DNA of 32,000 nt, from NCBI RefSeq assembly GCF_000039765.1, contig NC_004459.3:3016104-3048103 (forward strand), given 5' to 3'. Position 1 is the stretch's first letter, and every line of letters starts with the position of its first letter. The notes under the pieces were generated by a model. That model was not told where the DNA came from, searched no databases, and was given only the letters and a program-made list of their open reading frames with translations. This DNA is from Vibrio vulnificus CMCP6. GTDB taxonomy: Bacteria; Pseudomonadota; Gammaproteobacteria; Enterobacterales; Vibrionaceae. A program made the translations under genes and the position numbers. Shown one piece after another: positions 712 through 20,300 of the stretch.

Positions 712-735
712 GCTGAAAATTCTAATGCTCTCAGT

Positions 736-2030: not shown

Positions 2031-2034
2031 GTAT

Positions 2035-2065: not shown

Positions 2066-2088
2066 AAGAAGCGGTGGAGGAAAGCGCT

Positions 2089-3096
<1,008 letters not shown>

Positions 3097-3399
3097 TCAC
3101 TCATTTGAGCAGAACTTGCGCATACTAAGTTCTCAAATATAATTATTAGTTATAACGTGTAACGTTAAAAATGAACAGTGAAATTGATAGTTTTCTCTGC
3201 CATTACTTAACTGGGGAGCTCATCAACGATGGTTTTTGTAATGCATACCTCATTCTTCAATCGGATTAGCAACTTTTGATTATTAAAGCTTTAAATAACA
3301 GCAATAATCACTAAGAATATGATTAATAGGTGCATGTCATTAAAGGAATCGTGTATCCTTACTCGTTAGCCGTTAATAAATAAAGCAGACAAAACAGAT

Positions 3400-4164
3400 A
3401 TGAATATTGGTTTAATCATCGCTCTGGTCGCCGTTTTACTTGTACTTGTTATTGGTTACAACGTTATGTTGCAGTACAAAGTAAAGGCAGAAACCGCGAA
3501 AAGACAGGAGTCAGCGCGTTATGTTGCCGTTATAGATGCAACAGAGGAGTTGATCGGACATGCACATCATATCCCTTACAGCAAAGACTTATTGGTTTGT
3601 CTCAACAATCGTATTCTTGATGCGTTAGAAAATATGGCGGCACTTGATCCCAAGAGCAAGCAACTTGCTCAACGGGTCGAAGCAATGAAGCAGCAAATCG
3701 AACACCTTAAGAACAACTACCAAGGCGGTGAAAGCACAGCCTTTAAAGTTCCGAACAGTGATAAGCAAGCGATTGTAATGCTGAAACTTGTCAAACGCCT
3801 GAGAGACACCATTCGTAACGAGCACAATAAAGGTCGCTTTGATACCCAAGCTTATGTAGAAGAAAATGCTCGCTTAGAAACGATGCAGATTCGCATTAAC
3901 ATTGAAAACGTCATAAAGCGTGCTCATGATTCTATTGCTCGCGGTCAAGCAGGTACGGCCGTTCAATTGCTGCGTAAAGGGATTGACGTGCTGAGCACTA
4001 AGAATGATACCTATTCAGTGCAAGCTAAAGAGAAGCTTGAAACCATGCTTAACGAACTGGATAGAAAACGTTCAGACAAGAATGCAGAAGAGTTGCAACA
4101 AATCGAAGAAAAAGAGCGTAACAACGACATGGATGCACTCTTCGGTGATAAGAAAAAGTGGTAA
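3400..4164 (+). CDS. Hypothetical membrane-anchored coiled-coil protein (254 aa)
   Basis: One N-terminal hydrophobic helix (IGLIIALVAVLLVLVIGYNVML), followed by charged, heptad-like sequence rich in K/E/Q/R. A terminator hairpin follows. I recognise no family. Confidence 0.65.
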   Translation: MNIGLIIALVAVLLVLVIGYNVMLQYKVKAETAKRQESARYVAVIDATEELIGHAHHIPYSKDLLVCLNNRILDALENMAALDPKSKQLAQRVEAMKQQIEHLKNNYQGGESTAFKVPNSDKQAIVMLKLVKRLRDTIRNEHNKGRFDTQAYVEENARLETMQIRINIENVIKRAHDSIARGQAGTAVQLLRKGIDVLSTKNDTYSVQAKEKLETMLNELDRKRSDKNAEELQQIEEKERNNDMDALFGDKKKW

Positions 4165-4190
4165 CATTTACCACAACGATTCTCTTTACA

Positions 4191-4215
4191 AAGGTCGCAA
4201 AAGCGGCCTTTTTTC
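4191..4215 (+). terminator. Rho-independent terminator after the 254-aa gene
   Basis: AAGGTCGC-aaaa-GCGGCCTT followed by ttttt (the stem contains one G-U pair). Confidence 0.6.
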
Positions 4216-4235
4216 ATCACTAGTTAAACTGATTT

Positions 4236-5009
4236 ATGATATCTCTCGAAGCGTACCAAGATCTCCTTGACCCTATTAACCATTTTCTACAATGTGAAAC
4301 ACCTAGTGAATGGGTCGAAGAGGCCAAAAAACCAGAAAATCTTCCCACCATCCTGATAGATCATTTGCTTTGTGAGCTAAAGGCTGGGCAATCAGCTATG
4401 TATTTGATCCGTAAATATGCGGTGGATAAAGAAAGCTCGCATACCCTACTCGATTGGTTTAAGCCATACGAAAATTTTGCCTATCGTGGAATTGGCTCCA
4501 TTGAAACACTAAAAGGCAAAAGTAATATTTCTAAAGCCATTATGGCTAAGTCAGACTCACCTTATAGCCAAGAGCTCATTGATAAAATGGTCTTACTCAT
4601 TAAAGAGGAATTACACCACTTTTACCAAGTTCTGGAAATCATTTGTGCCAGAGGGATTGAATACGAAAATGTGACCGCAAGCCGTTACGCAAAAGGTCTG
4701 CTTTCACACATGAAAACACATGAGCCTGAAACACTGATCGATAAGCTTATTATCGGAGGGTATATTGAGGCAAGATCTTGTGAGAGGTTTGCAAAGCTCG
4801 CTCCTCACATGGACGATGACATTGCCAAGTTCTACGTTTCTCTGCTGCGCTCAGAAGCACGGCATTACCAAGATTACCTCACCCTCGCAGAACAGATCGC
4901 TGGCAAAGATATCAGCGAGCGAGTCGCCTATTTTGGCCAAATTGAAGCACAGCTGATTTGCTCAAAAGACGACGACTTTAAGTTTCACAGTGGCGTGCCT
5001 ACACGCTGA
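4236..5009 (+). CDS. miaE: tRNA-(ms2io6A37)-hydroxylase MiaE (ferritin-like di-iron)
   Basis: Di-iron carboxylate motifs LIKEELHHF and LLRSEARHYQDYL, plus DHLLCELKAGQSAM, YIEARSCERFA and the C-terminal FKFHSGVP. These match my memory of enterobacterial MiaE. Confidence 0.85.
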   Translation: MISLEAYQDLLDPINHFLQCETPSEWVEEAKKPENLPTILIDHLLCELKAGQSAMYLIRKYAVDKESSHTLLDWFKPYENFAYRGIGSIETLKGKSNISKAIMAKSDSPYSQELIDKMVLLIKEELHHFYQVLEIICARGIEYENVTASRYAKGLLSHMKTHEPETLIDKLIIGGYIEARSCERFAKLAPHMDDDIAKFYVSLLRSEARHYQDYLTLAEQIAGKDISERVAYFGQIEAQLICSKDDDFKFHSGVPTR

Positions 5010-5045
5010 AAAATATTGTTTATTGATTAAAATGATAAAAAGCCC

Positions 5046-5055
5046 GCTGGTTAGC
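5046..5055. repeat. Left copy of the 10-bp target-site duplication (GCTGGTTAGC) of the composite element
   Basis: It sits immediately outside the left IS terminus. It matches 17362-17371 (GCTGGTTCGC) at 9 of 10 positions. Confidence 0.75.
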
Positions 5056-6451
5056 GCAGTGTAGATCAGATAAGGATCGGTTGACCGATCCTTCTGATGA
5101 GAGACAATCGGAAACCTGTTTATAGGTTTCCGATTTTTTTATGTCTATCCAAAACTATTTTGCTGACTTTCTTGAAGAGAGTCCTGTTGATGTCGCTCAG
5201 CTCACCACCTTCTCCGAGCATATTCCTGATGAGTGGGTTGCTAAAGCGGCAACACTTTCCGATAAAGCGACAATTCGTCGACGTCGTTTACCTAGTGAGT
5301 TGGAATGGCGTTTTTCCGCAATGAGTCTATTGCAGAAGTCGCACGGCGAATGAATGTCTGTGCCGAGGGCTTAGCCGATGAGGAACTGCTAGCTAAAAGT
5401 GCTTTAACGCAAGCAAGGCAACGCCTTGGTAAAGCTGCTCCAGAATGGTTGTTTAGACAATGCAGTCACACATGGGGTCTAGAGCGTTACCCCGAGGATA
5501 CTTGGCAAGGCTTACAAGTCTTCGCTATTGATGGGGCTCTTTTTCGAACCGCTGATACATCAGAACTAAGAGAACATTTTGGGTCAGGTAATACATCCAG
5601 CGAGAGGCAGACACCTCATCCAGTACTCAGGGTGGTGACCATGATGAATGTTCGCTCACATGTCATTGTAGACGCAGCTATAAGCCCCTATCGTCGTGGT
5701 GAAATACCGCTTGCAATGCCCTTTATTGACTCTCTACCTGATAACTCATTGACTTTACTAGATAAGAGGTTTTATGGCGCAGACTTACTTCTTTCTCTCC
5801 AAAATAGTGGCTCCAACAGGCATTGGTTGTTACCAGCGAAGAAAGGGGTGAAATTCAGACTTCTGGACGATGAAGAGAGCGACGACATGTTGGTAGAAAT
5901 GAAAGTCTCTCCACAGGCTCGCAAGAAAAATGGCAAGTCAGAGCCGTTACTTATCAAGTACAAGGTAAGCACAAAACAGTGTTTACGTCTTTGCCTAGGG
6001 AAGAGTACGATACGGAATCAGTAGCCGAGCTTTACCATGAGAGATGGGAAATTGAGTTAGGGTACAGAGACATAAAAAGTTCGATGCAGCACAACGCGTT
6101 AGTGCTGAGGAGTAAGACGGTCGAGCTTGTCTATCAAGAGTTATGGGGGCTGTTGCTTGGTTATAACTTGGTAAGACGAGAAGCCAGTCAAGCGGCCGTA
6201 GCACATGGTCGAAATGGCCAATGAAATCAGTTTTAAATACGCTTGTCAGTTCATCACTAGTCAACTGAAAGTAATGAGCAAAGCGGTATCTCCAGGTAAT
6301 ACACCGAAGCGTCTAAAAAGTCTGCGCGGAGACTTATCCATCCTTTTTATAGACAAACGCCCTAAGCCAAATCGGCCTAGGGCGGTAAAAATATCAAAGA
6401 CCCGATATCCTGTTAATCGCAAGGCAGCTCCTCTTAAGTGAACTACATTGC
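5056..6451 (+). mobile_element. IS4-family insertion sequence, degenerate copy (1396 bp)
   Basis: Collinear with the intact copy at 15930-17361. Terminal sequences are GCAGTGTAGATC... and ...GAACTACATTGC. Relative to the intact copy it has two 19-bp deletions, two 1-bp insertions and about 5 substitutions. Confidence 0.9.
5141..6441 (+). pseudogene. IS4-family DDE transposase, frameshifted pseudogene
   Basis: ORF-track fragments 5141-5353, 5305-6024, 5979-6224 and 6205-6441 each match consecutive parts of the 445-aa protein from 16014-17351. The reading frame is broken at every indel. Confidence 0.9.
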
Positions 6452-6521
6452 AATCAATTGGGGGCTTCTTACTTGAGTTTTCGTCACACTCGATGACAAA
6501 CCGCCTAGGCGAGTCAGCGCA

Positions 6522-6920
6522 TTACGCCAACTTGTAGATCACCTTGTTACCTGCAAGCTGCTCTTTCTGCACTAGGTTATCTTCAAGCAATTTTTTCAGT
6601 GCACCTGTTGCCCAAGAAGCCGCTTTGGCATCTTCTTGACCCGCTGCAAGGCCGATGCTTTTCGGGTTAATGCCTTCCGCATTAGCGGCAACGATATCCA
6701 GCACTTGTTGCTGCTTAGGCGTCAGAGAAATCTCTGTGTTTACTGCAGATGAAGCAGCCACTTTGGTCGCAACGACTTTTTTCTCAGCCACTGACTTAGA
6801 GATAACGGTTTTTTCTGCAGCTGGCTTAACTGTATTTGATGCAGCAGCCAAATTCGCTACAGCTGCTTTAATGCGTTTTTGCAGTTTCATCTGCACTTTA
6901 CGCTTATGAGCAAGTCTCAT
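6522..6920 (-). CDS. Hypothetical small basic protein: K/A-rich histone-H1-like N-terminal half and a compact C-terminal domain (132 aa)
   Basis: ORF with GGAGA 8 nt upstream of the ATG at 6920. The N-terminal half is lysine/alanine/valine-rich low complexity (KRKVQMKLQKRIKAAV...AEKKVVATKVAA). The C-terminal ~65 aa looks like a small helical, possibly winged-helix, domain. This is inference only. Confidence 0.55.
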   Translation of the reverse strand: MRLAHKRKVQMKLQKRIKAAVANLAAASNTVKPAAEKTVISKSVAEKKVVATKVAASSAVNTEISLTPKQQQVLDIVAANAEGINPKSIGLAAGQEDAKAASWATGALKKLLEDNLVQKEQLAGNKVIYKLA

Positions 6921-7169
6921 TAAATGTGTCTCCAGTTCACTGCTTATCAGCAGGGATGAAAATTTGAAGCGCGTTTTATACCAAAATTTCAGCTCGATTT
7001 GTAGGCTTAAGCAGTGAACAGTGGCGAAAAATGCGTTATGAACGGAGAGAGACTATTCTTTAATCAATAAGATAATGAACTTAATTGGGTATCCAAACGT
7101 AAAACGTCGTTATCGTTCGCGTCATTCCGCTGCGTGGCGCTAACGGCTCAAAACGAGTTGAGGAACACA

Positions 7170-7838
7170 ATGCAAACTCTCCAGTTGTCAAACCGATATC
7201 AGCTTGCCAGCTCAGTCTTTGTTAAAGGACTGGTGGTGGTATTTGCGATTGTCGGCGCTTTGCTCCTGTTTCTGTCTCCAAGCTGGCCACAAGCGCTGCT
7301 CTCTGTTGGCCTGCTCATCACCGTTGCGCTGTTTGGTGTCTACCTGATACAACGCAGCACTGTCGCCTATACCCTCACGCCCACACACTTCCAGCAACAT
7401 CTCTTTCAAGGTGGTTGGGTTGTAAAATGGAAGAACATCGAAAAAATTGGCATTTGTACCTATGAATCGGAAGGGTGGCATCAGCCTTTGCCGTGGATTG
7501 GCATCAAACTGGTGCACTACTCACCCTATTTGATGGCGATCTGCCCTCGCGTTTCGACGGAAATTCTGCTCAGTCAACGTGCACTGCTTTACCTCGGTGC
7601 GCGGCAACATCAGTGCGAAAGCCAATTTGAAGAGATGGTATTGGATCCCCAGCCGTATATTGATGAGCAAGGCAAAGAGCACACGGGTTTACAGGCGATG
7701 CTGGCAAATCGCATGAAATATCAAAGGCGTTTTTTCGATTACGATATTTTTATTTCAGCGCTAGATTTGGATAGAGAAGCAGAAGAGTTTGTTGGCCTAG
7801 CAAGGCGCTACTTGGCGGCGGCGGAGCCCGATCAATAA
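7170..7838 (+). CDS. Hypothetical inner-membrane protein (222 aa from the ATG at 7170)
   Basis: GAGGA lies 5 nt upstream of the ATG at 7170, whereas the ORF-track start at 7134 is GTG with no SD. Two adjacent hydrophobic helices (VFVKGLVVVFAIVGALLLFL and ALLSVGLLITVALFGVYLI) precede a soluble C-terminal domain. Confidence 0.6.
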   Translation: MQTLQLSNRYQLASSVFVKGLVVVFAIVGALLLFLSPSWPQALLSVGLLITVALFGVYLIQRSTVAYTLTPTHFQQHLFQGGWVVKWKNIEKIGICTYESEGWHQPLPWIGIKLVHYSPYLMAICPRVSTEILLSQRALLYLGARQHQCESQFEEMVLDPQPYIDEQGKEHTGLQAMLANRMKYQRRFFDYDIFISALDLDREAEEFVGLARRYLAAAEPDQ

Positions 7839-7896
7839 AGCCAACCAAAGAAACACGACGAGTTGTCTCCTTAGCTGGCTTACACGTTACAAACCG

Positions 7897-8553
7897 TTAG
7901 TACAGTGGCATTTCGTCAGCCACGAATGGATTGGTACGACGCTCGTGCCCGAATGTCGACTCAGGGCCATGACCTGGGATAAAGGTGACGTCATTGCCCA
8001 GCGGCCATAGCTTATTCTTGATTGACGCGATCAGCGTATTGAAATCGCCTTGAGGGAAATCCGTTCGACCAATACTGCCATTAAATAGCACATCCCCGAC
8101 AAACGCACGACGCGCTTCTTCACTGTACAACACCACGTGACCAGGAGTATGCCCAGGTGTATGAAGCACTTGCAGCACTTGATTGCCAAAACACACTTCG
8201 TCACCATCATTGAGCCATTGGTTTGGTTCAAACGCCTCTGTCAACGGAAAGCCAAACATTTGACTTTGTCCTTCCAGACCTTGTAGCCAAAAGTTGTCTG
8301 CCTTATGAGGACCAACAATCTCGATACCATCAAGCATTTCAGCCAGACGCTCGGTTCCGCCAACGTGATCCAAATGACCATGGGTTAATACCAAATTGAC
8401 CACTTCCACACCCAGTTCTTTGATGATCACGGCAAGTTGCTTTTCATCACCACCAGGGTCGATGACGATACCTTTCATGGTGTCATCACACCAAACAATC
8501 GAACAGTTTTGTGCAAATGGAGTAACGGGAACAATCTGATATTTAAGTGCCAT
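7897..8553 (-). CDS. gloC: MBL-fold hydrolase, YcbL/GloC-type hydroxyacylglutathione hydrolase (218 aa)
   Basis: Metallo-beta-lactamase motif LTHGHLDHVGG, plus HTPGHTPGHV and FIPGHGP. The sequence is collinear with my memory of E. coli YcbL (IIPVT.F.QNCS.IWC...). GAGG lies 6 nt upstream of the ATG at 8553. Confidence 0.85.
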   Translation of the reverse strand: MALKYQIVPVTPFAQNCSIVWCDDTMKGIVIDPGGDEKQLAVIIKELGVEVVNLVLTHGHLDHVGGTERLAEMLDGIEIVGPHKADNFWLQGLEGQSQMFGFPLTEAFEPNQWLNDGDEVCFGNQVLQVLHTPGHTPGHVVLYSEEARRAFVGDVLFNGSIGRTDFPQGDFNTLIASIKNKLWPLGNDVTFIPGHGPESTFGHERRTNPFVADEMPLY

Positions 8554-8622
8554 AGCAACCTCGGTCAATTTCGAACTGGGCGAAACTATGACACCGGAAG
8601 CGTCGAAAAACAAGGTGAGCCA

Positions 8623-9168
8623 TCACCAAGAGCGAACCGGACCCGTGTCGATATGAACAAAATTACTGCCCGGATAGTAGCCGACCCCACCCGCTTCGAG
8701 ACTTAAAGCGGCATCACGCACTGTTGAAAGCTTCACGCCATCAAGGCGAAAGTCGATGGCCCGTCCAAGCATATGGTAGCTTTTCTTCGCCACACCAGAG
8801 GATTTAGCGCGCAGCGCGGCGTTGGTTTGTGGCGATCGGTAGCCTGAAATGATTTGGACTTCGTTTTCTGTACCAATCAGTTTTTGAATTTGAGTCAGGT
8901 GATCAAACAAACGGCGATCCATGGGGTGCACTTCGTTTTGGCGGAAATCTCGGCAAATCTTATCAATACGCGCCAACTCTTCAATCAGATAAGTCGAACC
9001 GTCGAAATAGCACGTTTCAAGTAACTCACCAGTGTGTAGATTGTTGAGCGCAAGAGTACGAGGCTGATCAGGATACGACGCCATCGCAAGTTTCGGCATG
9101 GCTGACGCCAGCAATAAACCCCCACCGGTCATACGTAAAAATTGTCGTCGAGAATATTGATCAGACAT
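8623..9168 (-). CDS. mepK: Tat-exported peptidase M15A / DUF882, YcbK (MepK)-type murein endopeptidase (181 aa)
   Basis: Twin-arginine signal SRRQFLRMTGGGLLLASAMPKLAMA. Zn-ligand-type motifs SGYRSPQTN, HMLGRAIDF and FVHID. Length matches E. coli YcbK. The ATG at 9168 is preferred over the GTG at 9183. Confidence 0.85.
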   Translation of the reverse strand: MSDQYSRRQFLRMTGGGLLLASAMPKLAMASYPDQPRTLALNNLHTGELLETCYFDGSTYLIEELARIDKICRDFRQNEVHPMDRRLFDHLTQIQKLIGTENEVQIISGYRSPQTNAALRAKSSGVAKKSYHMLGRAIDFRLDGVKLSTVRDAALSLEAGGVGYYPGSNFVHIDTGPVRSW

Positions 9169-9331
9169 GAATAAAGTCACCACTTAAAATTACTTCAGCA
9201 GCGAACCTTATCGGAAGGTATTTTTCACGTCAAATGCATAAAACGCGCCCAAATAGGGCAAACTTCGCTAAAAGAGTGATTAGTTATTGAGTAAACAATC
9301 TTTTTTTCTTATGTAAATTTTTGTTCAATTT

Positions 9332-10888
9332 TCAGCCTTTGTGATCATCCACGAGATCGTACTGATAGATATCATCGCGATAGTTCAGCTCTTCCCCTTC
9401 AAACCACACTGTCTGATAGATGATATGGACGGGAATACGACGCTTGAGGGGGATCATAGTGTTGGCTTCTTGCCGAGTCGCTAAATTGGAGAGCTCTTCC
9501 TCCAGCCCTTGGGTTTTCAGCAATTGCAGCGCAAACTGATCGGCATTTTGAACCCGCACACACCCAGAGCTGAACGCTCGGCTGTCTTCTTGGAACAAAC
9601 TTTTCGACGGAGTGTCGTGCAAAAAGATCGCACGCTTATTGGGAATATTAAATTTGTACAGCCCTAACGCGTTTTTATCTCCAGCCAGTTGACGCATCTT
9701 GTATGGGAAGGATTTGAGTGACACCTTTGTCCAATCAATGGTTTGTGGATTCACCGCGGTTTGCGAGTCCCACCCTTCAACAATTTCAATATTTTGTTTG
9801 GTTAAGAAGCTTTGGTCATATTTCACTTTGGGCAAAATATCTTTGACCATAATGGTTTTCGGCACGTTCCATACGGGATTTAGCACCACCCCATCCATCT
9901 TGCCCACCATAATCGGCGTTTTTCGGCTCTTTCTGCCAACTACCACTTTGGATTCAAAGATCTCCTCGCCCTTATACCAAAACTTCATCTCATAGCCTGG
10001 CACATTGACCAAGACCAGCAGATCTCGTTCTTCTGGCCAAAGTCTCGAGCGCTCAGAGTTCAACGCCATCGAGTGCAGCCGCTGAGCGGGAGTCATGTTA
10101 AGCCATTTTAAGGTAATAGGCCCGACAACACCGTCTTGCGTCAGCCCATGCATTTTTTGAAATTGTTTCACCGCCAGTTCAAGCTGCGTGTCGTAGTATT
10201 TGATATCCCGCTTCAAATGGCTGGTTTCAAGACCCACCACTTCTAAACGTTTGATCAAATTGGCTCTATCAGGCAGTTTATCCCCCAGCTTCAATAAACC
10301 CACCTGATGAAAAAGCGGCACGGCGTGATCTCGCGCCTTTAGTAAACGACTATAACGATTGGCAAACTGCTGATGGCGCTGCAACGGCGAACGCAATGAA
10401 CGGACAAACGTTGCTAAATACCCAGCCTGAATATCTGCAGATAAACGATTCATTGATGAATAAGAAGGTGCGGGCAAACTTTGGCTTAACGGCTGTGTAA
10501 AGAGCCACTCTTTGCCATGTTGGGGGAGTTTTTCCAAGTAGCTGATGTAGGAAAGCAGTAGGTCGGTGGCAACAATGTCATACTCAAACCATTTTTGCTC
10601 GTTTTTATAGCGCCTCAGTTTACTGATTTGGTAGTCGAAATAGGGGCTGACAGACGCGGTTTTGATCAGTTCTAGCTGGAATTCAAGTTGCGAGGTCGCT
10701 TCATTATCAGACCAAATGAGTCGATGATGATTTCCTTGATACAAGCGCTCAACATGCTCAGGAAACTGGACATAGGCAAACACGGCGGAGTTCCCATCCA
10801 ACCACTGCTTCTCTTCTAATCCGGTCAGCGACCAAGTAGGACTAGAGAAGAAAATGCCTATCAGAAGTAACACTCGTTGCCACCGCAT
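9332..10888 (-). CDS. ldtD: L,D-transpeptidase, YcbB/LdtD family (YkuD catalytic domain plus PG-binding domain)
   Basis: Catalytic signature HDTPSKSLFQEDSRAFSSGCVRV. PG_binding_1-like segment AVKQFQKMHGLTQDGVVGPITLKWLN. Signal peptide MRWQRVLLLIGIFFSSPTWS. AGGAG lies 6 nt upstream of the ATG at 10888. Confidence 0.85.
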   Translation of the reverse strand: MRWQRVLLLIGIFFSSPTWSLTGLEEKQWLDGNSAVFAYVQFPEHVERLYQGNHHRLIWSDNEATSQLEFQLELIKTASVSPYFDYQISKLRRYKNEQKWFEYDIVATDLLLSYISYLEKLPQHGKEWLFTQPLSQSLPAPSYSSMNRLSADIQAGYLATFVRSLRSPLQRHQQFANRYSRLLKARDHAVPLFHQVGLLKLGDKLPDRANLIKRLEVVGLETSHLKRDIKYYDTQLELAVKQFQKMHGLTQDGVVGPITLKWLNMTPAQRLHSMALNSERSRLWPEERDLLVLVNVPGYEMKFWYKGEEIFESKVVVGRKSRKTPIMVGKMDGVVLNPVWNVPKTIMVKDILPKVKYDQSFLTKQNIEIVEGWDSQTAVNPQTIDWTKVSLKSFPYKMRQLAGDKNALGLYKFNIPNKRAIFLHDTPSKSLFQEDSRAFSSGCVRVQNADQFALQLLKTQGLEEELSNLATRQEANTMIPLKRRIPVHIIYQTVWFEGEELNYRDDIYQYDLVDDHKG

Positions 10889-10970
10889 CTCTGCTCCTTG
10901 AGAACTCAATCCACTCAGTAAGTATGGCAAATTTCCCAAAGAACAGAGGTGTGATTTTAAGCGAAGTCAC

Positions 10971-12065
10971 TCACAATAATTTTGACCAGTGATTATCCCA
11001 TTGAATATTCGATTGAATCTCAGAACTGCCCATCTGGACCGATGTGGTGATCACTTTTCCGGCCCCAGAACTCACGCGAAACTGATCTTGGTAAACCACC
11101 ACGCCTGAGGCATCAGGCAATGCAGCTAATTCCACCAATTCTCCACTAGCTTTTGACCAGATACCATAGCAGTTGCCTGGTGGTGAGGTGGCCAAAATCC
11201 AATCGGATGTTGCCGCAATGCTGGCGATGTAATGATTAAAACGTGCCCACTGCTCTGGTTCAGCACGTAATGACATCATCTCCCCCCCACGAGTGTGCAT
11301 CGCCAGCAGCGATGGGTACTCATCCGGCTCACCTCGATACTGCTGGCCACACAACACCGTTTCCGCACCATCGTGGGCGAGATGCCGAATGCTTAGCTTA
11401 GGATCCGATAAAGCGACTTGCTCTAACAGTTTCCCTTGTTGTGAAAGGTAACTTAACGATGGTCGCATAGTGTCCAGATTCAATGGTGCTCGACCATGGG
11501 TATGAACGCCGCCAACACCAATGGCCAACACACCATCAGGCATCATGATCACCTCATGAGGGCCAATGCCAAATCCGCTGAGCTCCGCGACTTTTTTATA
11601 ACGGTTGCGGACATCGTACACACCGATGATACCTCGGCTTGTACTTCGCTCTCCCTCGGTGGCAAAGAGGTAATCCCCGGCATGAGAGTAGACGCCGTGG
11701 CCATAAAAATGCCTTTCGGGATGCGCACTTTGCAGATGGATGGTTTCTCCTGAGTGATAATCAAACACCATGAAGAAACTACCCGGACGACGTGCAAATA
11801 CCGTCGCATGTCCTTGCGCATTGGTGGCGACACCATGACCACGCTCAGGAAGCGGCAACTGCTGTAGTGGTCGGCCATATTGATCAGCCACTACCGCTGT
11901 ATATTGGTGACGTCCACGAATCGCGCATCCCACCAATGCGGGTTCAGCTTGTCTCGCATCTTTATTGGTTGATGCACAGCCAAAAGGCATGAGCGGTGCA
12001 CTCACGCCAAACAGTGCAGCTTTTAATAAAGCTCGTCGTTGTTCGTTAGTCACCATCGGTTGCAT
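10971..12065 (-). CDS. DUF1513-type periplasmic beta-propeller-like protein with a Tat-like signal (364 aa)
   Basis: N-terminal EQRRALLKAALFGVSAPLMPFG. Repetitive G/H-rich strand pattern (GHGV..., GIGPHE, GVGGVHTHG). It is the last gene of the conserved imelysin/DUF1111/imelysin/DUF1513 arrangement. Its start overlaps the upstream stop (12046). Confidence 0.7.
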   Translation of the reverse strand: MQPMVTNEQRRALLKAALFGVSAPLMPFGCASTNKDARQAEPALVGCAIRGRHQYTAVVADQYGRPLQQLPLPERGHGVATNAQGHATVFARRPGSFFMVFDYHSGETIHLQSAHPERHFYGHGVYSHAGDYLFATEGERSTSRGIIGVYDVRNRYKKVAELSGFGIGPHEVIMMPDGVLAIGVGGVHTHGRAPLNLDTMRPSLSYLSQQGKLLEQVALSDPKLSIRHLAHDGAETVLCGQQYRGEPDEYPSLLAMHTRGGEMMSLRAEPEQWARFNHYIASIAATSDWILATSPPGNCYGIWSKASGELVELAALPDASGVVVYQDQFRVSSGAGKVITTSVQMGSSEIQSNIQWDNHWSKLL

Positions 12066-13077
12066 TGAATCCTATAACGACACCTAACTCGACCGCCACT
12101 TCATCGTGGATGAGGTACTTTAACTGCTCCAGTTTGCGTAACTGAGTCAACGCCATTCGATAGCCTTCTTTGTCTTGCAATGCTGCAAACAAGCTCTTTT
12201 GCTCAGGCCAAGTCGCTAAAGTGACATCAAACTGATTCACCACTCGATCTGCCAACTCTGCTTTATCCATTCCCCTCAATGTAGCGTCTAGCCCCTCTCC
12301 ATTGGCTAAATAAAGCGCTTTTAATGCTTCCACGTTCGCTTTTAGATTGGAAAGGGAGGTTTGAGAGCGCCATGATTCAGAAAAATAGGGGCGAGGTTGA
12401 CCAATATTGGCTAACGGACGGCTCAGCTTTTTCATAGCATATTCCAATTGGTTTGACAGCAGTGAAATGTACTCTGAGTGCCACTCTTTCTCATTGAGCG
12501 ATGCCCAAGGGTTACTTGACCATGCATCTGAAATACGTTGCGTGTTTTGATTGAGATGACGGCTAATCGCGACCCCAGTTTGGCAAGTTTGAGCATTTCG
12601 ACTGAGATCTGAACTTTCATCATAAAGTAGCCATTCAATCGCACCAAGACCTTGAACTGTCACACTTTGTACCGCGATGTCATCTGCTTTCCATGTTTTG
12701 TTCTGCTGAATCAACGCGGACATCTTACGTCCTGTGGTGTTCTTTTTATCTGGCCAAAATTGTACGTTCCAGCTTTGCTCAAGCGCCGCTGCAGGTCCGC
12801 GCTCTTGACCTTGCAACGCCATCCAGCTCAACATACTGCGGTGCCACTGTTTCTTGACGGTGTCCATGCCCGCCTCTGGTAGCTGGCAGTAATGCACAAA
12901 CGCGCTAACAAGTTCTGTAGTTTCTTGAGCCAAAGTGGCTGCCACCGCTCGTTCGATATGGAAAACCGCGTCGCTACGATGTTGTGAAACCTTGTGCGAG
13001 TCTGTTGTTGATTGGCAACCGACGAAGAGCAGCGCCGCGCCCATTGCAAGTGAAATGTGTATGGTTTTCATTGCCAC
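12046..13077 (-). CDS. Imelysin-like (peptidase M75 fold) lipoprotein, second paralogue (343 aa)
   Basis: Lipobox LLFVGC. Degenerate imelysin core motif QGLGAIEWLLYDE, with Gly in place of the His seen in the IrpA paralogue. The start lies 3 nt after the DUF1111 stop. Confidence 0.75.
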   Translation of the reverse strand: MAMKTIHISLAMGAALLFVGCQSTTDSHKVSQHRSDAVFHIERAVAATLAQETTELVSAFVHYCQLPEAGMDTVKKQWHRSMLSWMALQGQERGPAAALEQSWNVQFWPDKKNTTGRKMSALIQQNKTWKADDIAVQSVTVQGLGAIEWLLYDESSDLSRNAQTCQTGVAISRHLNQNTQRISDAWSSNPWASLNEKEWHSEYISLLSNQLEYAMKKLSRPLANIGQPRPYFSESWRSQTSLSNLKANVEALKALYLANGEGLDATLRGMDKAELADRVVNQFDVTLATWPEQKSLFAALQDKEGYRMALTQLRKLEQLKYLIHDEVAVELGVVIGFNATDGD

Positions 13078-13080
13078 TCC

Positions 13081-14460
13081 CTATAGCGAATTGAGGAAAG
13101 CGATCAACGCATCGCGCTCTTTTGCTGACATCTTCAACACGTTTTGCTTGGCTGCTTCCGCTTCACCGCCATGCCAAAGCACCGCTTCCATCAGATTTCG
13201 TGCTCTTCCATCGTGTAAAAAATAAGTGTGATCATTCACTTCTTGCGTATAACCAATGCCCCACAACGGTGGTGTTCGCCACTCTTGACCATTGGCTAGG
13301 TATTCTGGTCGATTGTCTGCCAAACCTGGCCCCATGTCGTGCAACAATAAATCAGTATAGGGATGAATGGTTTGTTCTGACAATGCAGGCAATGCCTCAC
13401 GTTTGGCGGTTTTCACCGTCTGCTTATGACAACTCTCACAGCCTGATTGAACGAACAGCGTCTCGCCGAGCTTGACCTGCGGATCATTCACGTTGCGACG
13501 AATCGGCACCGCTAAATGCTGAGAATAGAACTCAACAAAATCCAAAATGTTGTCACTCACCTCTGGCGAGCCACCATTGGGCAACTTGCGACAGAGATCT
13601 TGTCTATCGGTGCAGTTTTCTTGCGGGAAGAGATGGCTGGTTAAGCCAAGGTCGCCATTAAACGCCGCCGCGTTTTGTTGCATTAAGGTTGGCTGCCCCG
13701 CTTTCCAACCAAAACGACCAATTGCGAGGGATTGAGTTTGCACATCCCACACTTTATTGAGTTTTCCTGAGATACCGTCTTGATTGCGATCGTCTTCATC
13801 TGCCCACTGCAACAGGGTTTCTTCGGCTATCGATTCAAGCAGCCCAAGACCGATCATTGGAGGTGCGACACGAGCAGAAAGCAAGGTTTGTGGATGCATC
13901 TCTCCATAAGCCAGATCACGGATCTCTACCGTCGGCTTACGCAACACCACCGTCGTCCCATCACTGAATGTAACAGGTACATCGCTGTAACGGATGCTGA
14001 TTTGCCCTTCCGGTTTTTGGTCTTGAAGAGCAAAATCTTGCAACTGACCACCGTAAGTCGGTTCAGGAATGACACCACTGGTGATCACCGCTTTTTTCTG
14101 CTCCGCCGTGAGTGCTGGAATGCTCAAGCGCACCAGCATTGATACAGCATGACTATCCCCTTTTTCAGGAGGATGCCCCCGACCATCTTTAATGTGGCAG
14201 TTTTGACAACCATTCGTGTTAAACAGTGGACCAAGACCATCACGTGCATCCGTTGAGGCCGGTGCAGACACCCAAGGGTTGCGGAAAAAACTGTTACCTA
14301 CACTAAAGTCCAATCTTTTGCTCATTGGAAGATTGGCCGCTGGTAATGAAAAAGCATTTGGACCCTCTTTTTTAACGCTGGTGTCACCACCAGATTTAAG
14401 GTCGTTGGCAAATGCGGTTGAAGAGAGCACGATGAGAGTGCTGAGCAAGTACGGCTTCAT
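13081..14460 (-). CDS. DUF1111 di-haem cytochrome c peroxidase-like oxidoreductase (459 aa)
   Basis: Sec signal MKPYLLSTLIVLSSTAFA. Two haem-c sites, GCQNCHIKDGRG and GCESCHKQ. Position is typical, between two imelysin genes. Confidence 0.8.
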   Translation of the reverse strand: MKPYLLSTLIVLSSTAFANDLKSGGDTSVKKEGPNAFSLPAANLPMSKRLDFSVGNSFFRNPWVSAPASTDARDGLGPLFNTNGCQNCHIKDGRGHPPEKGDSHAVSMLVRLSIPALTAEQKKAVITSGVIPEPTYGGQLQDFALQDQKPEGQISIRYSDVPVTFSDGTTVVLRKPTVEIRDLAYGEMHPQTLLSARVAPPMIGLGLLESIAEETLLQWADEDDRNQDGISGKLNKVWDVQTQSLAIGRFGWKAGQPTLMQQNAAAFNGDLGLTSHLFPQENCTDRQDLCRKLPNGGSPEVSDNILDFVEFYSQHLAVPIRRNVNDPQVKLGETLFVQSGCESCHKQTVKTAKREALPALSEQTIHPYTDLLLHDMGPGLADNRPEYLANGQEWRTPPLWGIGYTQEVNDHTYFLHDGRARNLMEAVLWHGGEAEAAKQNVLKMSAKERDALIAFLNSL

Positions 14461-14532
14461 TGAATTGCTTCCTACTAAACTGCATAAACAGCAAAAGGGC
14501 TCTAATGAGCCCTCTAAATATGATAATAATTA

Positions 14533-15816
14533 TTAGAATTCGTGATCCGCGGTGTCTGGATTCAGACTGTCGATGCCAACAATCTTAGCCGCACGTTCGA
14601 TCGCGGAAGTTTGCGCCACCAATGACATGATGGTTTCGTTCACTAGCGCATTGCCTTGCGCATTACCCGCTGCGATCAGTTGGTCAAAATGTTGATTTTG
14701 CTTTTCCGCAGATGTGACTAACTTGCCTACTTGCGCACGAGTGGTATCAAACTGCGCTTGGATCTCTTTGGCCGCATTTTTATCTTGTTGTGCCACCAAA
14801 TCATGTAGGCTTGGTCCTGTGAGCAGTGAGCCATCAACACGTTTGTAGATACCGGTGTAAACGTTATAGATACCTTGCTCGTTGTAGTAGTGTGAGTTAT
14901 GAGTGTTGTCCGAGAAACAATCGTGCTCATCCTCTGTCGAGTTTGCTTCTAGTGCCACTTTCATACGCTCACCGGCCAATTCACCAAGCGAAAGCGAGCC
15001 CATGCCAAACAGCATTTTACGCAAACCATTTTCAGCCGACTGAGCAAGCAATTCTTGACGGTAGTTACCTTTCTCTTGCGCAGACCATTGTTTTTCCATC
15101 CACTCAAGATCCGTTACGAGGAGCTGAGCCGCCGCTTTTAGATAGGCGCCACGGCGATCACAGTGACCATTGGTGCATTGCGAACCCACAACAAAATCCG
15201 TGTAAGCACGTTGACCAGCACCAGCATTTGTACCGTTAAGATCTTGACCCCAAAGTAAAAACTCAATGGCGTGATAGCCAGAAGCCACGTTAGCTTCAGA
15301 GCCACCGACTTCGTTGAGCTCTGCGATCAACTCAGGTGTAATCACGGAAACATCCAGTTGAGACGCGCCGATTTTCAGCGTTGTGTTCGCAACGATATTG
15401 GCTTTCGCCCCTTCGTTACCCAGCTCATATTGGTAGTCGGTTGAAACATAATCGATCAAACCTTCGTCTAATGGCCAAGCATTCAACTGCCCTTCCCAAT
15501 CATCCACAACGGTATTACCGAAACGGAATACTTCAGATTGTTGATAAGGCACTCGAGCATCTAGCCACGCCTGCTTAACCTCTTCTAACTTTGCCGCTGA
15601 AGGCGCAGACAAAAACTGTTCAACTTTCTTTTCAAGTTGTTGTGCGGTTGTCAATGAATCCGCAAAAACAGCGTGGGCAACGTCAGCATAATGCTCGACA
15701 ACTTGCTGATTGGTAACATTCGCGGCAAGCAGGTGACCACTGGCAAACAGTGTTGTACTGCTAAAGACTGGACTAATAGAGTTTTTGCATTCATCTGAAG
15801 CATCCTTGTTGAGCAT
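14533..15816 (-). CDS. irpA: Imelysin family protein, iron-regulated protein A (IrpA)-like (427 aa as drawn; the start is uncertain)
   Basis: Imelysin GxHxxE core SGYHAIEFLLWGQD. First gene of the four-gene cluster. The N-terminus is atypical for an exported protein (see finding). Confidence 0.75.
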   Translation of the reverse strand: MLNKDASDECKNSISPVFSSTTLFASGHLLAANVTNQQVVEHYADVAHAVFADSLTTAQQLEKKVEQFLSAPSAAKLEEVKQAWLDARVPYQQSEVFRFGNTVVDDWEGQLNAWPLDEGLIDYVSTDYQYELGNEGAKANIVANTTLKIGASQLDVSVITPELIAELNEVGGSEANVASGYHAIEFLLWGQDLNGTNAGAGQRAYTDFVVGSQCTNGHCDRRGAYLKAAAQLLVTDLEWMEKQWSAQEKGNYRQELLAQSAENGLRKMLFGMGSLSLGELAGERMKVALEANSTEDEHDCFSDNTHNSHYYNEQGIYNVYTGIYKRVDGSLLTGPSLHDLVAQQDKNAAKEIQAQFDTTRAQVGKLVTSAEKQNQHFDQLIAAGNAQGNALVNETIMSLVAQTSAIERAAKIVGIDSLNPDTADHEF

Positions 15817-15834
15817 TTCTTACTTGTTATTCGT

Positions 15835-15853
15835 AGTGCTAATTATTCTTATT
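15835..15853 (-). promoter_or_regulatory. Candidate Fur box upstream of irpA
   Basis: The minus-strand 19-mer AATAAGAATAATTAGCACT matches GATAATGATAATCATTATC at 11 of 19 positions by my manual alignment. It lies 19-37 nt upstream of the ATG. Confidence 0.35.
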
Positions 15854-15871
15854 TGCACTTTTAGTCGCCAG

Positions 15872-15899
15872 ATAATACAAAGTTACAATTTTTTTGCAA
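15872..15899 (-). promoter_or_regulatory. Candidate sigma70 promoter for the irpA operon
   Basis: Minus strand reads TTGCAA - 16 nt - TATTAT. The -35 box is 30 bp from the IS terminus at 15930. Confidence 0.4.
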
Positions 15900-15980
15900 G
15901 TGACAAACAAAAAAAGCTCCACAACTGTGGCAATGTAGATCAGATAAGGATCGGTTGACCGATCCTTCTGATGAGAGACA

Positions 15981-16013
15981 ATCGGAAACCTGTTTATAGG
16001 TTTCCGATTTTTT
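15981..16013 (+). promoter_or_regulatory. Terminator-like hairpin in the IS leader, abutting the transposase start codon (also present at 5107-5140)
   Basis: ATCGGAAACCT-gtttat-AGGTTTCCGAT followed by ttttt, then ATG at 16014. It is preceded by a second hairpin, AAGGATCGG-ttga-CCGATCCTT, at 15946-15967. Confidence 0.6.
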
Positions 16014-17351
16014 ATGTCTATCCAAAACTATTTTGCTGACTTTCTTGAAGAGAGTCCTGTTGATGTCGCTCAGCTCACCACCTTCTCCGAGCATATTCCT
16101 GATGAGTGGGTTGCTAAAGCGGCAACACTTTCCGATAAAGCGACAATTCGTCGACGTCGTTTACCTAGTGATATGGTTCTTTGGCTTATTGTTGGAATGG
16201 CGTTTTTCCGCAATGAGTCTATTGCAGAAGTCGCACGGCGAATGAATGTCTGTGCCGAGGGCTTAGCCGATGAGGAACTGCTAGCTAAAAGTGCTTTAAC
16301 GCAAGCAAGGCAACGCCTTGGTAAAGCTGCTCCAGAATGGTTGTTTAGACAATGCAGTCACACATGGGGTCTAGAGCGTTACCCCGAGGATACTTGGCAA
16401 GGCTTACAAGTCTTCGCTATTGATGGGGCTCTTTTTCGAACCGCTGATACATCAGAACTAAGAGAACATTTTGGGTCAGGTAATACATCCAGCGAGAGGC
16501 AGACACCTCATCCAGTACTCAGGGTGGTGACCATGATGAATGTTCGCTCACATGTCATTGTAGACGCAGCTATAAGCCCCTATCGTCGTGGTGAAATACC
16601 GCTTGCAATGCCCTTTATTGACTCTCTACCTGATAACTCATTGACTTTACTAGATAAGGGGTTTTATGGCGCAGACTTACTTCTTTCTCTCCAAAATAGT
16701 GGCTCCAACAGGCATTGGTTGTTACCAGCGAAGAAAGGGGTGAAATTCAGACTTCTGGACGATGAAGAGAGCGACGACATGTTGGTAGAAATGAAAGTCT
16801 CTCCACAGGCTCGCAAGAAAAATCCTAACCTACCTGAAAAATGGCAAGTCAGAGCCGTTACTTATCAAGTACAAGGTAAGCACAAAACAGTGTTTACGTC
16901 TTTGCCTAGGGAAGAGTACGATGCGGAATCAGTAGCCGAGCTTTACCATGAGAGATGGGAAATTGAGTTAGGGTACAGAGACATAAAAAGTTCGATGCAG
17001 CACAACGCGTTAGTGCTGAGGAGTAAGACGGTCGAGCTTGTCTATCAAGAGTTATGGGGGCTGTTGCTTGGTTATAACTTGGTAAGACGAGAAGCCAGTC
17101 AAGCGGCCGTAGCACATGGTCGAATGGCCAATGAAATCAGTTTTAAATACGCTTGTCAGTTCATCGCTAGTCAACTGAAAGTAATGAGCAAAGCGGTATC
17201 TCCAGGTAATACACCGAAGCGTCTAAAAAGTCTGCGCGGAGACTTATCCATCCTTTTTATAGACAAACGCCCTAAGCCAAATCGGCCTAGGGCGGTAAAA
17301 ATATCAAAGACCCGATATCCTGTTAATCGCAAAGCAGCTCCTCTTAAGTGA
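16014..17351 (+). CDS. IS4-family DDE transposase (445 aa)
   Basis: Signature Y-2-R-3-E-6-K in YHERWEIELGYRDIKS. Candidate catalytic Asp contexts VFAIDGALF and LLDKGFYG. The ORF fills the element. Confidence 0.9.
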   Translation: MSIQNYFADFLEESPVDVAQLTTFSEHIPDEWVAKAATLSDKATIRRRRLPSDMVLWLIVGMAFFRNESIAEVARRMNVCAEGLADEELLAKSALTQARQRLGKAAPEWLFRQCSHTWGLERYPEDTWQGLQVFAIDGALFRTADTSELREHFGSGNTSSERQTPHPVLRVVTMMNVRSHVIVDAAISPYRRGEIPLAMPFIDSLPDNSLTLLDKGFYGADLLLSLQNSGSNRHWLLPAKKGVKFRLLDDEESDDMLVEMKVSPQARKKNPNLPEKWQVRAVTYQVQGKHKTVFTSLPREEYDAESVAELYHERWEIELGYRDIKSSMQHNALVLRSKTVELVYQELWGLLLGYNLVRREASQAAVAHGRMANEISFKYACQFIASQLKVMSKAVSPGNTPKRLKSLRGDLSILFIDKRPKPNRPRAVKISKTRYPVNRKAAPLK

Positions 17352-17361
17352 ACTACATTGC

Positions 17362-17371
17362 GCTGGTTCGC
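17362..17371. repeat. Right copy of the 10-bp target-site duplication (GCTGGTTCGC)
   Basis: It sits immediately outside the right IS terminus and is followed by GGGCTTT, the orphaned right arm of the split terminator. Confidence 0.75.
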
Positions 17372-17395
17372 GGGCTTTGAGTTATTTATCAATGA

Positions 17396-20300
17396 TTAGT
17401 GTGCGTGTAAGTCATCAGATAAGTAACTAGTACGGTTATATACTGGTAAATTCTCCAGAGACTTCAACTGGTAGGCATACTTCTTAAGCAACTCAGCTCG
17501 TTTTTCAGCATCTTGATAATCTGCAAGCACCACAGCTTCTAAAGTCACCGTTGTCAAATCAACAGAGGCTGCTTCAGCTTCTTGCAACGCTTTAATGTCA
17601 TTCGTGAATGCAATCATATTCCAAGCGTAGCTGTTTTCTGGTGTAGCGTAGTAAGTAGTGCCGTTTGAGCGTTTAAACGTACGTAAATCACTCATTGAGC
17701 CAACAGGTTCACTTCGCATACTGATCTTGCGAGCTAATACTTCATCACGCTGATCCACCATATTTCCTGCTGAATGCCAAACCATTGCCGTCAAAATAGC
17801 TTTGGTCAATGGAACTTCTTCGAAACGAGGAAGCGCAAAGTAATTACGTACACTCCAACTACCGTAATATGGCATAGTTTCGACTTTATCGTCCCATGTT
17901 ATTGCAGTGAAGTCACCTTTTGGTCGAGAGTAATTACCTTGTTCATCTTTGAAGTTCAGATAAAGAAACTCTTCACCCAAAATCAAAGTATCTAGCAAGA
18001 GATCCCCTTTCGGATAGAACTGGAAAAATCCATTTGCTAACCCTGTCGTTTCTGGTAATTCTAACAGTGATGTCGTAGAGCGATCTGTTGAACGACGCAT
18101 ACCAACACGATCAACTAGTGCCACGGATGCCGCTAGTTTATCTGGCCAATGACCGATGTAATCGATGTAGTTAGAGTAGTTATTTACTGGAGCAGGACGT
18201 GGAGCCTTGCCACTGTTTAGGAACTTACCTATCTCACCTACAACTTTTTCCCCTGTTGCTAATGACGCTTTGATAGTGTCATCAAAACATGTCGTCGGGA
18301 CGAAGTTGATAGGGAAATTATTACGCATTGAATAATTGCCCATGATCTCTGCAAGTTTCTTGTAAGTAAATGAACCGTCAGCTTTCTCAATTTCACACGT
18401 ATGGTCTGGAGTAATCAGGATGTTTACAAGTTGATCACGCGCTTTATCAACAGCTAATGGAGCACCACAGTAAACGGCAAATGGCCAACGAGTTGCATTT
18501 GCTTCATCACTACAGAACGCTTCCTGTGCTTTTGGCAAGCCCTGCATTTGGATATGTGAAAGAGGGCTAGAGAATACTAACTCACGGTAGCGATCGTATA
18601 CATGTAGGGCATTACGCCAATCTTGGAACTCTTGAACTCGACGAACTGTGTAACTCATCATCGTCCCTTCAGAGAAGTTCTCTCTCATACCACGTACTGT
18701 ACGTTTGTAGTACAGGTCATCGTAAGTTTCTAACTTGTAAGACATAATTTCAGAACGGTTGCGCCCTTCATCATGACGGTTACAGTCATCATTTAAACTT
18801 ACATTTCCGTCAGTACAAAACGCAAAGTCTCTCATCGGAATCGCAGGGTTTTCCGATGCTAGCGCTTTGATTGTACCGTCACTTAGAAGATCCGAAGGTG
18901 CCTTGTAAGGATCAAGAATCTCCTCGCGAAGCTGCGCATCATACTGGCCAGCATCGAGATAAACAGTTTGCTCGCTCGTGGTATTGTCTGCTTGATTCAC
19001 TACCGTTTCAGTAGCTTCAACTTGACGCTTATAACCAAAACGTAAAGCGGCCAAATCATAAGGACCAAAAACTGGTAGTGCATTCAATAGCGATGGGTTG
19101 TAATCCATGATCGATGAATACCCAGGTACTACTTTCAGACCGTGCTCGGCAAGCTCATGATCTTTAAAGTAGTTTGAAGCATCATTACTACCTTTGAAGT
19201 TGTGACGAAGACCAAAGTTATGGCCTAGCTCATGTACAAGCGTTTTCGCATAGAATACGCCAACAATGAACAGGCTCAGCTCTTCTTGTTGTTTCTCCGT
19301 CAAATCAGCCCATTCTTTTAGGCTACCAACTTCGCCTATTTGACCATTGTTCCAAAGAGATGCATCTTGGAAGTTGAAGCTCATACCACCAATAGAACTT
19401 GGCAGACTCTTCAATGTAGCACCAGATCGAAGCGCTGAAACTGGGTACATATTGTTCTCAGCCCACAGACGACGCTCCAACTCTTTGATAGCACTTAAAT
19501 CTTCAAATGAGACATTCTCATCATTGGCTTCAAGTTCTTCTTTAACAGCGGCAATGACATCGGCCATAGACTCATTCGCCATTGGAGATTGCTCAAACGC
19601 AACCATATCTCCCAAAGAAACAACTTCTGTAGACTGAGACGCTTCAGTAATAGAGGCGACAGAGTTTGATGTAGTTGATTCTCCAGTGCTGTTTGTCGCG
19701 TTAGATGTAGAACCTGTATCCGGTTTTGCAACTAATTCAACTCGCCCTTTGTTATAATCTTGAGCAATACGATCCCATAGCCAATCAGAGATTGAACGCA
19801 AAACACCTGAGTACTGGTTTACATGTGCGTGAACAATTTCGCCTGTCAACGGGTTAACCGCTGAGGGGCCATACCCAGCCAAACCATTGTCTAGTGGCTC
19901 ATCAATCAAGTTGATAACATTGTATCTCAAATCACCTGACAACTTACCTGAAGGTTCGTGAAGACGAATTTTGGGAACACCCACTTTCTCTAACTGTGGA
20001 TTAATTCGGTCAATAACATCTTTCGTGACCTGCTTAAAGAACCGTGTTTCTTCGTTTTGATCAAAACTGTCCGAAAGATGGTAATCAATAAATTCTAGGC
20101 TTGGGTTAAAACGGTGAAGATAGCTAAACTTCTGATCAAATTGTCCATCTACATACGATGGATCAGGACGGCCTACTTCATTAGCAAAGAAGCCAAAAGT
20201 ATCCTCATCACCTTTCAGATACATCACTGGTTCATATTCTGTCGATGAAGAGCGAACAAGGTCGAGAGGCACAAGAGAATAGAATTGAGATGCCGTAAAC

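Follow-up and report, generated by a model that had tools for sequence, protein, structure and literature searches.

A nine-gene block of Vibrio vulnificus displaced from one terminator-bounded site to another between copies of an insertion sequence that targets terminator hairpins

How did nine housekeeping-like envelope genes come to lie, between two copies of an insertion sequence (IS), inside a split transcription terminator? The question is raised by a 32,000-nucleotide stretch of Vibrio vulnificus CMCP6 (NC_004459.3, positions 3,016,104 to 3,048,103; called the window below, and numbered from its first letter), which was placed on V. vulnificus chromosome I, one base apart from CP037931.1, by exact-protein look-ups. 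At 5037-17378 of the window, a 12.3-kb unit of IS, cargo and IS interrupts the hairpin between miaE and a convergent protease gene; the initial annotation, made from the letters alone, took it for a composite transposon that had arrived whole. The nine genes are displaced to this site (T1) from a native site between ribA and dctP, and the IS inserts specifically into the centre of intrinsic-terminator hairpins. Recombination between independently inserted IS copies probably explains the displacement better than composite transposition does. The features of the site are the following.

4236..5009, plus strand: miaE (Pfam MiaE, E = 3.7e-93), the left neighbour, whose own terminator is the target
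5037..5056: left half of the T1 hairpin, AAAAAGCCC, carrying the left copy of the target duplication, CGCTGGTTAGCG, at 5045-5056; intact in L023, L024 and L025
5057..6450, plus strand: IS_L, a decayed IS4-subgroup copy with its transposase in fragments and the outer end CAGTG, not CAATG
15931..17360, plus strand: IS_R, an intact 1430-bp IS4-subgroup element with ends CAATG...CATTG
16014..17351, plus strand: transposase of IS_R, 445 aa, with Nterm_IS4 and DDE_Tnp_1 domains and the YREK motif YHERWEIELGYRDIK
17361..17378: right half of T1, with the duplication copy CGCTGGTTCGCG at 17361-17372, then GGCTTT
17396..21040, minus strand: Met-zincin-like protease, 1214 aa (Pfam DUF4953), the right neighbour, which has T1 in common with miaE

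Both outer junctions were confirmed by direct reading, as ...AAAAAGCCCGCTGGTTAGC / GCAGTGTAGATC at 5055/5056 on the left and GAACTACATTGC / GCTGGTTCGCGGGCTTTGAG at 17361/17362 on the right, and the two IS copies do lie in a split hairpin. The adjoining ten bases (5046-5055 and 17362-17371) are identical at nine of ten positions, and had been annotated as a 10-bp target duplication around IS copies at 5056-6451 and 15930-17361. That length falls within the IS4-subgroup range of 10-13 bp; under the end convention of the subgroup, however, the copies span 5057-6450 and 15931-17360 and the duplication is 12 bp long (CGCTGGTTAGCG, at 5045-5056 and 17361-17372). Its two copies match at 11 of 12 positions in the window and at 12 of 12 in LORY02000003.1 (L034). 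Because the duplication is perfect in L034, the C at 17369 was assigned to a later A-to-C single-nucleotide polymorphism (SNP), the native loop base being A.

Excision of the unit had been predicted to restore the hairpin, and the predicted site exists. In IS-free V. vulnificus genomes, which were located by CysB look-up, miaE is followed by AAAGCCCGCTGGTTAGCGGGCTTT and the protease gene, across a 70-bp spacer that reads GATAAAAAGCCCGCTGGTTAGCGGGCTTTGAGTTATTTATC (L023, CP151591.1; L024; L025, CP012881.1). Intact T1, which is the hairpin drawn in the initial annotation but with the native A in its loop, scores as a terminator on both strands in a terminator scan, with 10 pairs and a 4-nt loop (minimum free energy -24.5 kcal/mol, z = -6.7). 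With its GC-rich stem-loop and a T-run on each strand between convergent genes, T1 is predicted to be an intrinsic bidirectional terminator. Relatives without the IS but with the nine genes between miaE and the protease gene were looked for, and none was found.

The nine cargo genes, and the half-hairpins of two further sites (T2 and T3) that adjoin them, are listed here in window order.

6451..6470: cargo-side half of T3, CAATCAATTGGGGGCTTCTT, with the T3 duplication copy CAATCAATTGG at 6451-6461; T3 is intact in L011
6522..6920, minus strand: cargo gene 1, 132-aa protein without a family match; the exact protein is widespread in V. vulnificus
7134..7838, plus strand: cargo gene 2, DUF2982 protein (Pfam PF11201, E = 5.9e-53)
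7897..8613, minus strand: cargo gene 3, MBL-fold hydrolase, GloB/GloC-like (NCBIfam matches below curated cut-offs; Lactamase_B listed)
8623..9183, minus strand: cargo gene 4, peptidoglycan L,D-endopeptidase MepK (NCBIfam NF053624, 249.8 bits, cut-off 185)
9332..10939, minus strand: cargo gene 5, L,D-transpeptidase, LdtD/LdtA-like (NCBIfam NF007891, 391 bits, below the cut-off of 425; YkuD and PG_binding_1)
10971..12065, minus strand: cargo gene 6, DUF1513 protein (Pfam family listed for the called gene)
12046..13077, minus strand: cargo gene 7, imelysin (Peptidase_M75, family listed for the called gene)
13081..14460, minus strand: cargo gene 8, di-haem oxidoreductase-like protein (DHOR, family listed for the called gene)
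14533..15816, minus strand: cargo gene 9, IrpA-like imelysin, its 5' end frameshifted by a 1-bp deletion near 15757 relative to CP037931.1
15911..15930: cargo-side half of T2, AAAAAGCTCCACAACTGTGG, with the T2 duplication copy CCACAACTGTGG at 15919-15930; T2 is intact in L011

The family searches agree with the annotated content of nine housekeeping-like envelope genes, and the identity of LdtA with VC1268, which the initial annotation had mentioned in connection with a relocation, agrees with the literature (vc1268 is ldtA in V. cholerae). In most V. vulnificus genomes the nine genes lie between ribA and dctP, 0.84 Mb from T1. The native order, found in many genomes, is fadR-ribA-T2-nine genes-T3-dctPQM, with T2 and T3 intact where read (L011): T2, in the ribA/irpA spacer, is AAAAGCTCCACAGTTGTGGAGCTTTTTTT, and T3, in the spacer between the 132-aa gene and dctP, is AGAAGCCCCCAATTGATTGGGGGTTTTTT. 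The inner junctions of the window (IS_L then AATCAATTGGGGGCTT; AAAAAAAGCTCCACAACTGTG then IS_R) are exact halves of T3 and T2, respectively, cut at the hairpin centres, and neither IS copy has a target duplication of its own. With the genes normally at ribA-dctP and T1 empty in IS-free relatives, the relocation suspected in the initial annotation is borne out. In the window itself, one base fewer than in CP037931.1 at about 15757 (GTTGTCACTGC becoming GTTGTACTGC) frameshifts the signal-peptide region of the IrpA-like gene; the canonical start of this gene is MNAKTLLVQSLAV, and the window's open reading frame (ORF) begins at an upstream ATG at 15816.

The counterpart of the displaced block was read at the donor site, where scars were found by look-up of a second DctQ allele (the first allele returned native loci only). 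CP012739.1 carries the unit at T1 (L016/L029, 2.07-2.09 Mb) and, at its native locus (L148, 1.24 Mb), a scar with one IS that reads fadR-ribA-...GATAAAAAGCTCCACAGTTGTGG / IS / CCAATTGATTGGGTTTTTTTT...-dctP. The same pairing of T1 unit (L034) and one-IS scar (L146) occurs in LORY02000003.1, and the scar is also present in CP002469.1 (presumably the clinical strain MO6-24/O), CP014049.2, CP151937.1 and AP026552.1. The scar runs from ribA and the T2 half through one IS to the T3 half and dctP, and its flanks are exact reciprocals of the inner junctions of the window. The T3 duplication CAATCAATTGG and the T2 duplication CCACAACTGTGG are each split between scar and T1 unit; the block was therefore translocated, not copied. 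The 0.84-Mb interval between T1 and ribA-dctP has kept its orientation. If the same holds for the window's own genome, ribA-dctP of CP037931.1 would show a single IS, preceded by ..CCCAATCAATTGG and followed by CCACAACTGTGGAGC... In two of the scar carriers, CP014049.2 and CP151937.1 (L143, 1-1130, and L147, 1-1131), a second IS4-type transposase gene (441 aa) occupies the usual place of fadR upstream of ribA, so that ribA is bracketed by two IS elements.

These observations bear on two other accounts of the window. The view that miaE and the protease gene are the native neighbours of the nine genes, with an IS inserted on either side of the block, agrees with the gene order of the window alone, but the 70-bp miaE-hairpin-protease spacer of IS-free strains, the place of the block in most genomes, the lack of a separate duplication at either IS and the reciprocal scar reduce its probability to almost nothing, and the empty and native sites refute it. 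A repeat mis-resolved in one assembly is just as improbable. IS repeats do break or mislead short-read assemblies (L003-L010 stop where the IS is reached, and L022 contains an N-gap), but the T1 unit is found with identical junctions in CP037931.1, CP012739.1, CP019290.1, LORY02000003.1 and JBEEAL010000003.1, which are independent complete genomes or megabase contigs.

The IS belongs to the IS4 subgroup, the members of which measure 1400-1650 bp, end in -AATR and make direct repeats of 10-13 bp (De Palmenaer et al. 2008, PMC2266710). Its transposase is a single-ORF DDE enzyme with the IS4 N-terminal domain (282 bits against NCBIfam transpos_IS4_1, cut-off 115; Pfam Nterm_IS4 and DDE_Tnp_1) and has the Y(2)R(3)E(6)K signature, as YHERWEIELGYRDIK in translation; the element is 1430 bp long with ends CAATG...CATTG. 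Duplications measure 12 bp at both T1 and T2, 11 bp at T3, and 11-15 bp and 10-14 bp at solo copies in V. vulnificus and in relatives, respectively. Since the 12 bp at T1 fall within the range of 10-13 bp, the duplication is compatible with this type of element. IS_L and IS_R are direct repeats, and IS_L is damaged by two 19-bp deletions, two 1-bp insertions and several substitutions. The element may be ISVvu3. A scan of a genome collection with the transposase returned no V. vulnificus locus, so the species representative is apparently without the IS. Nor is it a plasmid-borne element: at 84% identity, a plasmid search covered only 24%. At a distance of 14 nt from the left IS end, within the element, stands a perfect 10-bp inverted repeat (AAGGATCGGT-TGAC-CGATCCTT, window 15944-15967 and also 5070-5093); this repeat is kept in Vibrio, Grimontia and Aeromonas relatives, is not present in the Neptuniibacter or Oceanicoccus copies, and may be a binding site for the transposase or a host factor.

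Insertion into hairpins is the rule for this IS. All 19 targets, whether reconstructed or observed, form a fold in which the loop lies at the centre of the duplication (median z = -4.9), and the target has the form of an A-run, a GC stem and a T-run, of which the central 10-15 bp are duplicated. Elsewhere in V. vulnificus the IS likewise occupies the middle of hairpins, where it has duplicated 11-15 bp. Relatives that are 60-95% identical (Grimontia, Aeromonas, Neptuniibacter, Oceanicoccus) provided 18 copies with two flanks, of which 13 have perfect 10-14 bp duplications in hairpins; the flanks of the remaining five are mismatched half-hairpins, and these copies are for that reason regarded as recombinants. 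Even in Acidovorax relatives, at 40% identity, the same targeting was seen in 4 of 6 copies. 'Spectacular apparent insertion specificity' has been noted for the IS4 subgroup (PMC2266710), and no description of terminator-hairpin-centre targeting by the Vibrio element was found in the literature searched.

T1 and T3 have also received single copies, in repeated and independent insertions. In CP035731.1 a solo intact IS lies in T1 at the same nucleotides and in the same orientation as the unit, with a perfect 12-bp duplication, while the cargo is at its native site and T2 and T3 are intact. GCA_021022985.1 has a solo IS at T1 in reverse orientation, again with native cargo, and YJ016 has an IS in T3, opposite in orientation to the scar copy. 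Because the solo T1 copy gives identical junctions, nothing at its outer junctions sets the 12.3-kb unit apart from a solo insertion, and a duplication spanning the unit is no proof that the unit moved. The earlier argument that the duplication shows IS-cargo-IS to have arrived as one unit is therefore not supported as it was stated, in view of the solo copies and of the one-IS scar.

Several further observations concern the surroundings of T1. In L026 and L028 identity to the window ends right after the T1 hairpin, beyond which the protease allele is longer and diverged (1365-1376 aa); T1 is thus a boundary between conserved and variable sequence. Compared with LORY02, the left flank (window 1-5055) is 98.1% identical, the cargo 99.7% and the right flank (17361-21000) 99.9%, and the drop on the left suggests the edge of a between-lineage recombination at or near T1. 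Beside T1 in CP035731.1 (L151, 4374-8900) lie a 155-aa MiaE fragment, a second MiaE-family gene (254 aa) and a gene for a 733-aa AAA_13 ATPase, in place of the single miaE of other strains, which suggests that miaE has undergone an insertion or a replacement.

As to how the block moved, we favour, with a probability of roughly 60%, three independent insertions followed by homologous recombination between IS copies. IS copies would have landed separately in T1, T2 and T3, and recombination between them would have carried the block from ribA-dctP to T1, either by two successive inversions or by excision of a circle of IS and cargo that re-integrated into the T1 copy. One IS would have stayed behind at the donor as the reciprocal scar; later, the left copy would have decayed in the lineage of the window strain and the right duplication copy would have gained the A-to-C SNP. 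The native-site copies being inverted relative to T1, two inversions or an excision and re-integration yield exactly the observed product. The solo-T1 state that this route needs exists in the population, in CP035731.1. Weaker support comes from three further observations. L127 (Logan SRR17229348, 2277 bp) has a single IS with the dctP-side T3 half on one flank and the protease-side T1 half (an L028-like allele) on the other, possibly the junction that an inversion between the T1 and T3 copies would leave in an intermediate. A rare IS variant (A at alignment column 702) is common to the T1-solo IS of CP035731.1 and the protease-side copy of LORY02. Finally, every composite genome seen has CAGTG at the left outer end, where all other copies have CAATG. 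That recombinant copies of the element are common, with 5 of 18 in relatives, also speaks for this route.

Composite transposition remains the competitor to be weighed. A Tn10-like unit formed at the native locus by the T2 and T3 copies would have been pasted, as 12.3 kb and by action of the transposase on its two outer ends, into T1 with a 12-bp duplication; the donor would have been restored from the sister copy and its unit later lost by deletion between IS copies, leaving one IS. We regard this course as possible but rather unlikely. Two direct IS copies around the cargo, the right one with an intact transposase, a single duplication spanning the whole unit (of a length usual for the subgroup) and a target that fits the IS preference are all as this model predicts, and the same block with the same inner junctions occurs at a third place in one genome (L018). 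However, the spanning duplication is undiagnostic, and cut-and-paste alone cannot leave a one-IS donor with reciprocal flanks, so that the model has to add two events. The cargo was not seen twice in any genome, and the altered outer end CAGTG breaks the conserved -AATR end in all composite genomes, a change that could be later. The unit was not seen at several unrelated sites each with its own duplication; the one further displaced copy, that of L018, lies between truncated IS copies and lacks a duplication. Nor has the donor lost both IS copies or kept the whole unit: it holds exactly one IS. 'Composite transposon' thus describes the structure of the unit and is not established as its mechanism. 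An intramolecular act of the transposase, in which a T2 or T3 copy attacks T1 in a replicative or one-ended manner without host recombination, would produce the inversions and give the same junctions and split T1 duplication, but nothing in the data requires such an attack and the characterised members of the IS4 family (IS10, IS50) are non-replicative cut-and-paste elements; we consider it improbable.

Several points weigh against recombination as the mover. Composite transposition into T1 followed by donor deletion between IS copies gives an equal final structure, and none of the proposed steps was observed directly. IS variants have been scrambled by gene conversion, which shares rare variants within genomes, so that phasing of the left, right and scar copies was indecisive. 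The scar is known from two other composite genomes, the window's own genome not being among them, and L127, like L001 below, is a short-read contig across a repeat and a possible misjoin. Native cargo flanked by an IS at T2 and another at T3, the precursor that recombination and composite transposition have in common, was found in no genome. On balance we infer that recombination, rather than transposition of the whole unit, moved the block.

Two assemblies hold unusual arrangements of the block. In GCA_040240045.1 the nine genes lie, with the same inner junctions, among toxin-antitoxin cassettes (L018, 600-1130 and 10380-11300), flanked by IS pieces 1-147 and about 755-1430 that abut inverted attC-like superintegron repeats, with no duplication. 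The dctP-side IS of this genome breaks off at that same nucleotide too (after CCTGT), and a tuf/secE-nusG region follows (L150, 2830-3800); the contig is 5.18 Mb long, and the chromosomes may be fused or misassembled. In GCA_052822105.1 (L001, 10821-12216) miaE, a single IS and the protease gene follow one another and the cargo is absent. The IS is chimeric, with left-copy markers (both 19-bp deletions) to about 1000 and right-copy markers after about 1200, and reflects either a natural deletion of the nine genes between IS copies or a short-read misjoin; because of the latter possibility, L001 was set aside as evidence for a deletion derivative of the composite.

If the IS splits terminators, what becomes of transcription at its targets? 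The element carries hairpins of its own.

5106..5136, plus strand: inward-facing terminator-like hairpin of IS_L, before the former transposase start; homologous to 15980-16009
15980..16009, plus strand: terminator hairpin and T-run of IS_R, immediately before the transposase ATG; its 5' arm shares sequence with a promoter-like site at 15955-15982
17268..17294, minus strand: inward-facing terminator-like hairpin at the right IS end, antisense to the 3' end of the transposase gene

Across ten relatives, compensatory changes affect 7 of the 12 stem pairs of the left hairpin and its T-run is invariant; the right hairpin is also kept in relatives, with compensatory changes in four pairs, which is weaker evidence because it lies inside coding sequence. 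The hairpins are inferred to terminate transcription, and the left one would replace the host terminator destroyed by insertion. Transcripts from the promoter-like site would begin within the left hairpin's 5' arm, so that only read-through from outside would form the hairpin; IS10 and IS50 are likewise protected against outside transcription, and the arrangement resembles theirs.

Taken as a whole, the locus is a well-resolved new example of known phenomena, the target specificity of the IS4 subgroup and IS-mediated rearrangement; no new biochemical principle is implied, and what is seen, cleanly, is ordinary IS-driven genome shuffling. A more speculative reading, which we hold only tentatively, is that this IS lineage is a dedicated terminator-swapping element, and that blocks bounded by terminators can be moved by recombination between IS copies as intact transcription units. 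On that reading insertions would be nearly neutral, because the IS lands only in terminator loops and brings inward-facing terminators, and the block in the superintegron region (L018) would be a second instance. Terminator targeting together with IS-borne terminators would explain how the IS spreads and synteny is reshuffled at little cost to neighbouring genes. For a site-specific IS, a duplication spanning IS-cargo-IS should not be taken as proof of composite transposition, and the empty, solo and composite-plus-scar states provide a clear structural marker of V. vulnificus lineages.

The element and its rearrangement can be set beside four kinds of known systems. With the IS4 subgroup (PMC2266710) it shares the DDE transposase with Nterm_IS4, the YREK motif, a length of 1430 bp, -AATR ends, duplications of 10-13 bp and strongly conserved left and right target arms; what differs is the hairpin-centre targeting, documented here site by site. 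Like Tn10 (IS10) and Tn5 (IS50), the unit has two IS4-family copies around a cargo, one spanning duplication and one decayed copy; unlike them, its IS copies are direct rather than inverted, its cargo consists of chromosomal housekeeping genes, one outer end is altered at a conserved position and the donor bears a reciprocal one-IS scar. Other IS elements target palindromes, namely IS1397 and ISKpn1 in REP/PU sequences and IS621 and ISPpu9 (IS110) and ISRm22 (IS4Sa) in REP (PMC1525189). They too hit extragenic palindromes, spare genes and return to the same nucleotide, whereas the present IS targets unique terminators with A/T runs rather than repeated REP, and differs in transposase type and subgroup. 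Rearrangements by recombination between IS copies in E. coli (PMC5009759, PMC11708052) show the same lack of separate duplications, swapped flanks and reciprocal junctions; in contrast to these, the V. vulnificus event is a clean terminator-to-terminator translocation of a 9.5-kb block that kept the orientation of the 0.84-Mb interval.

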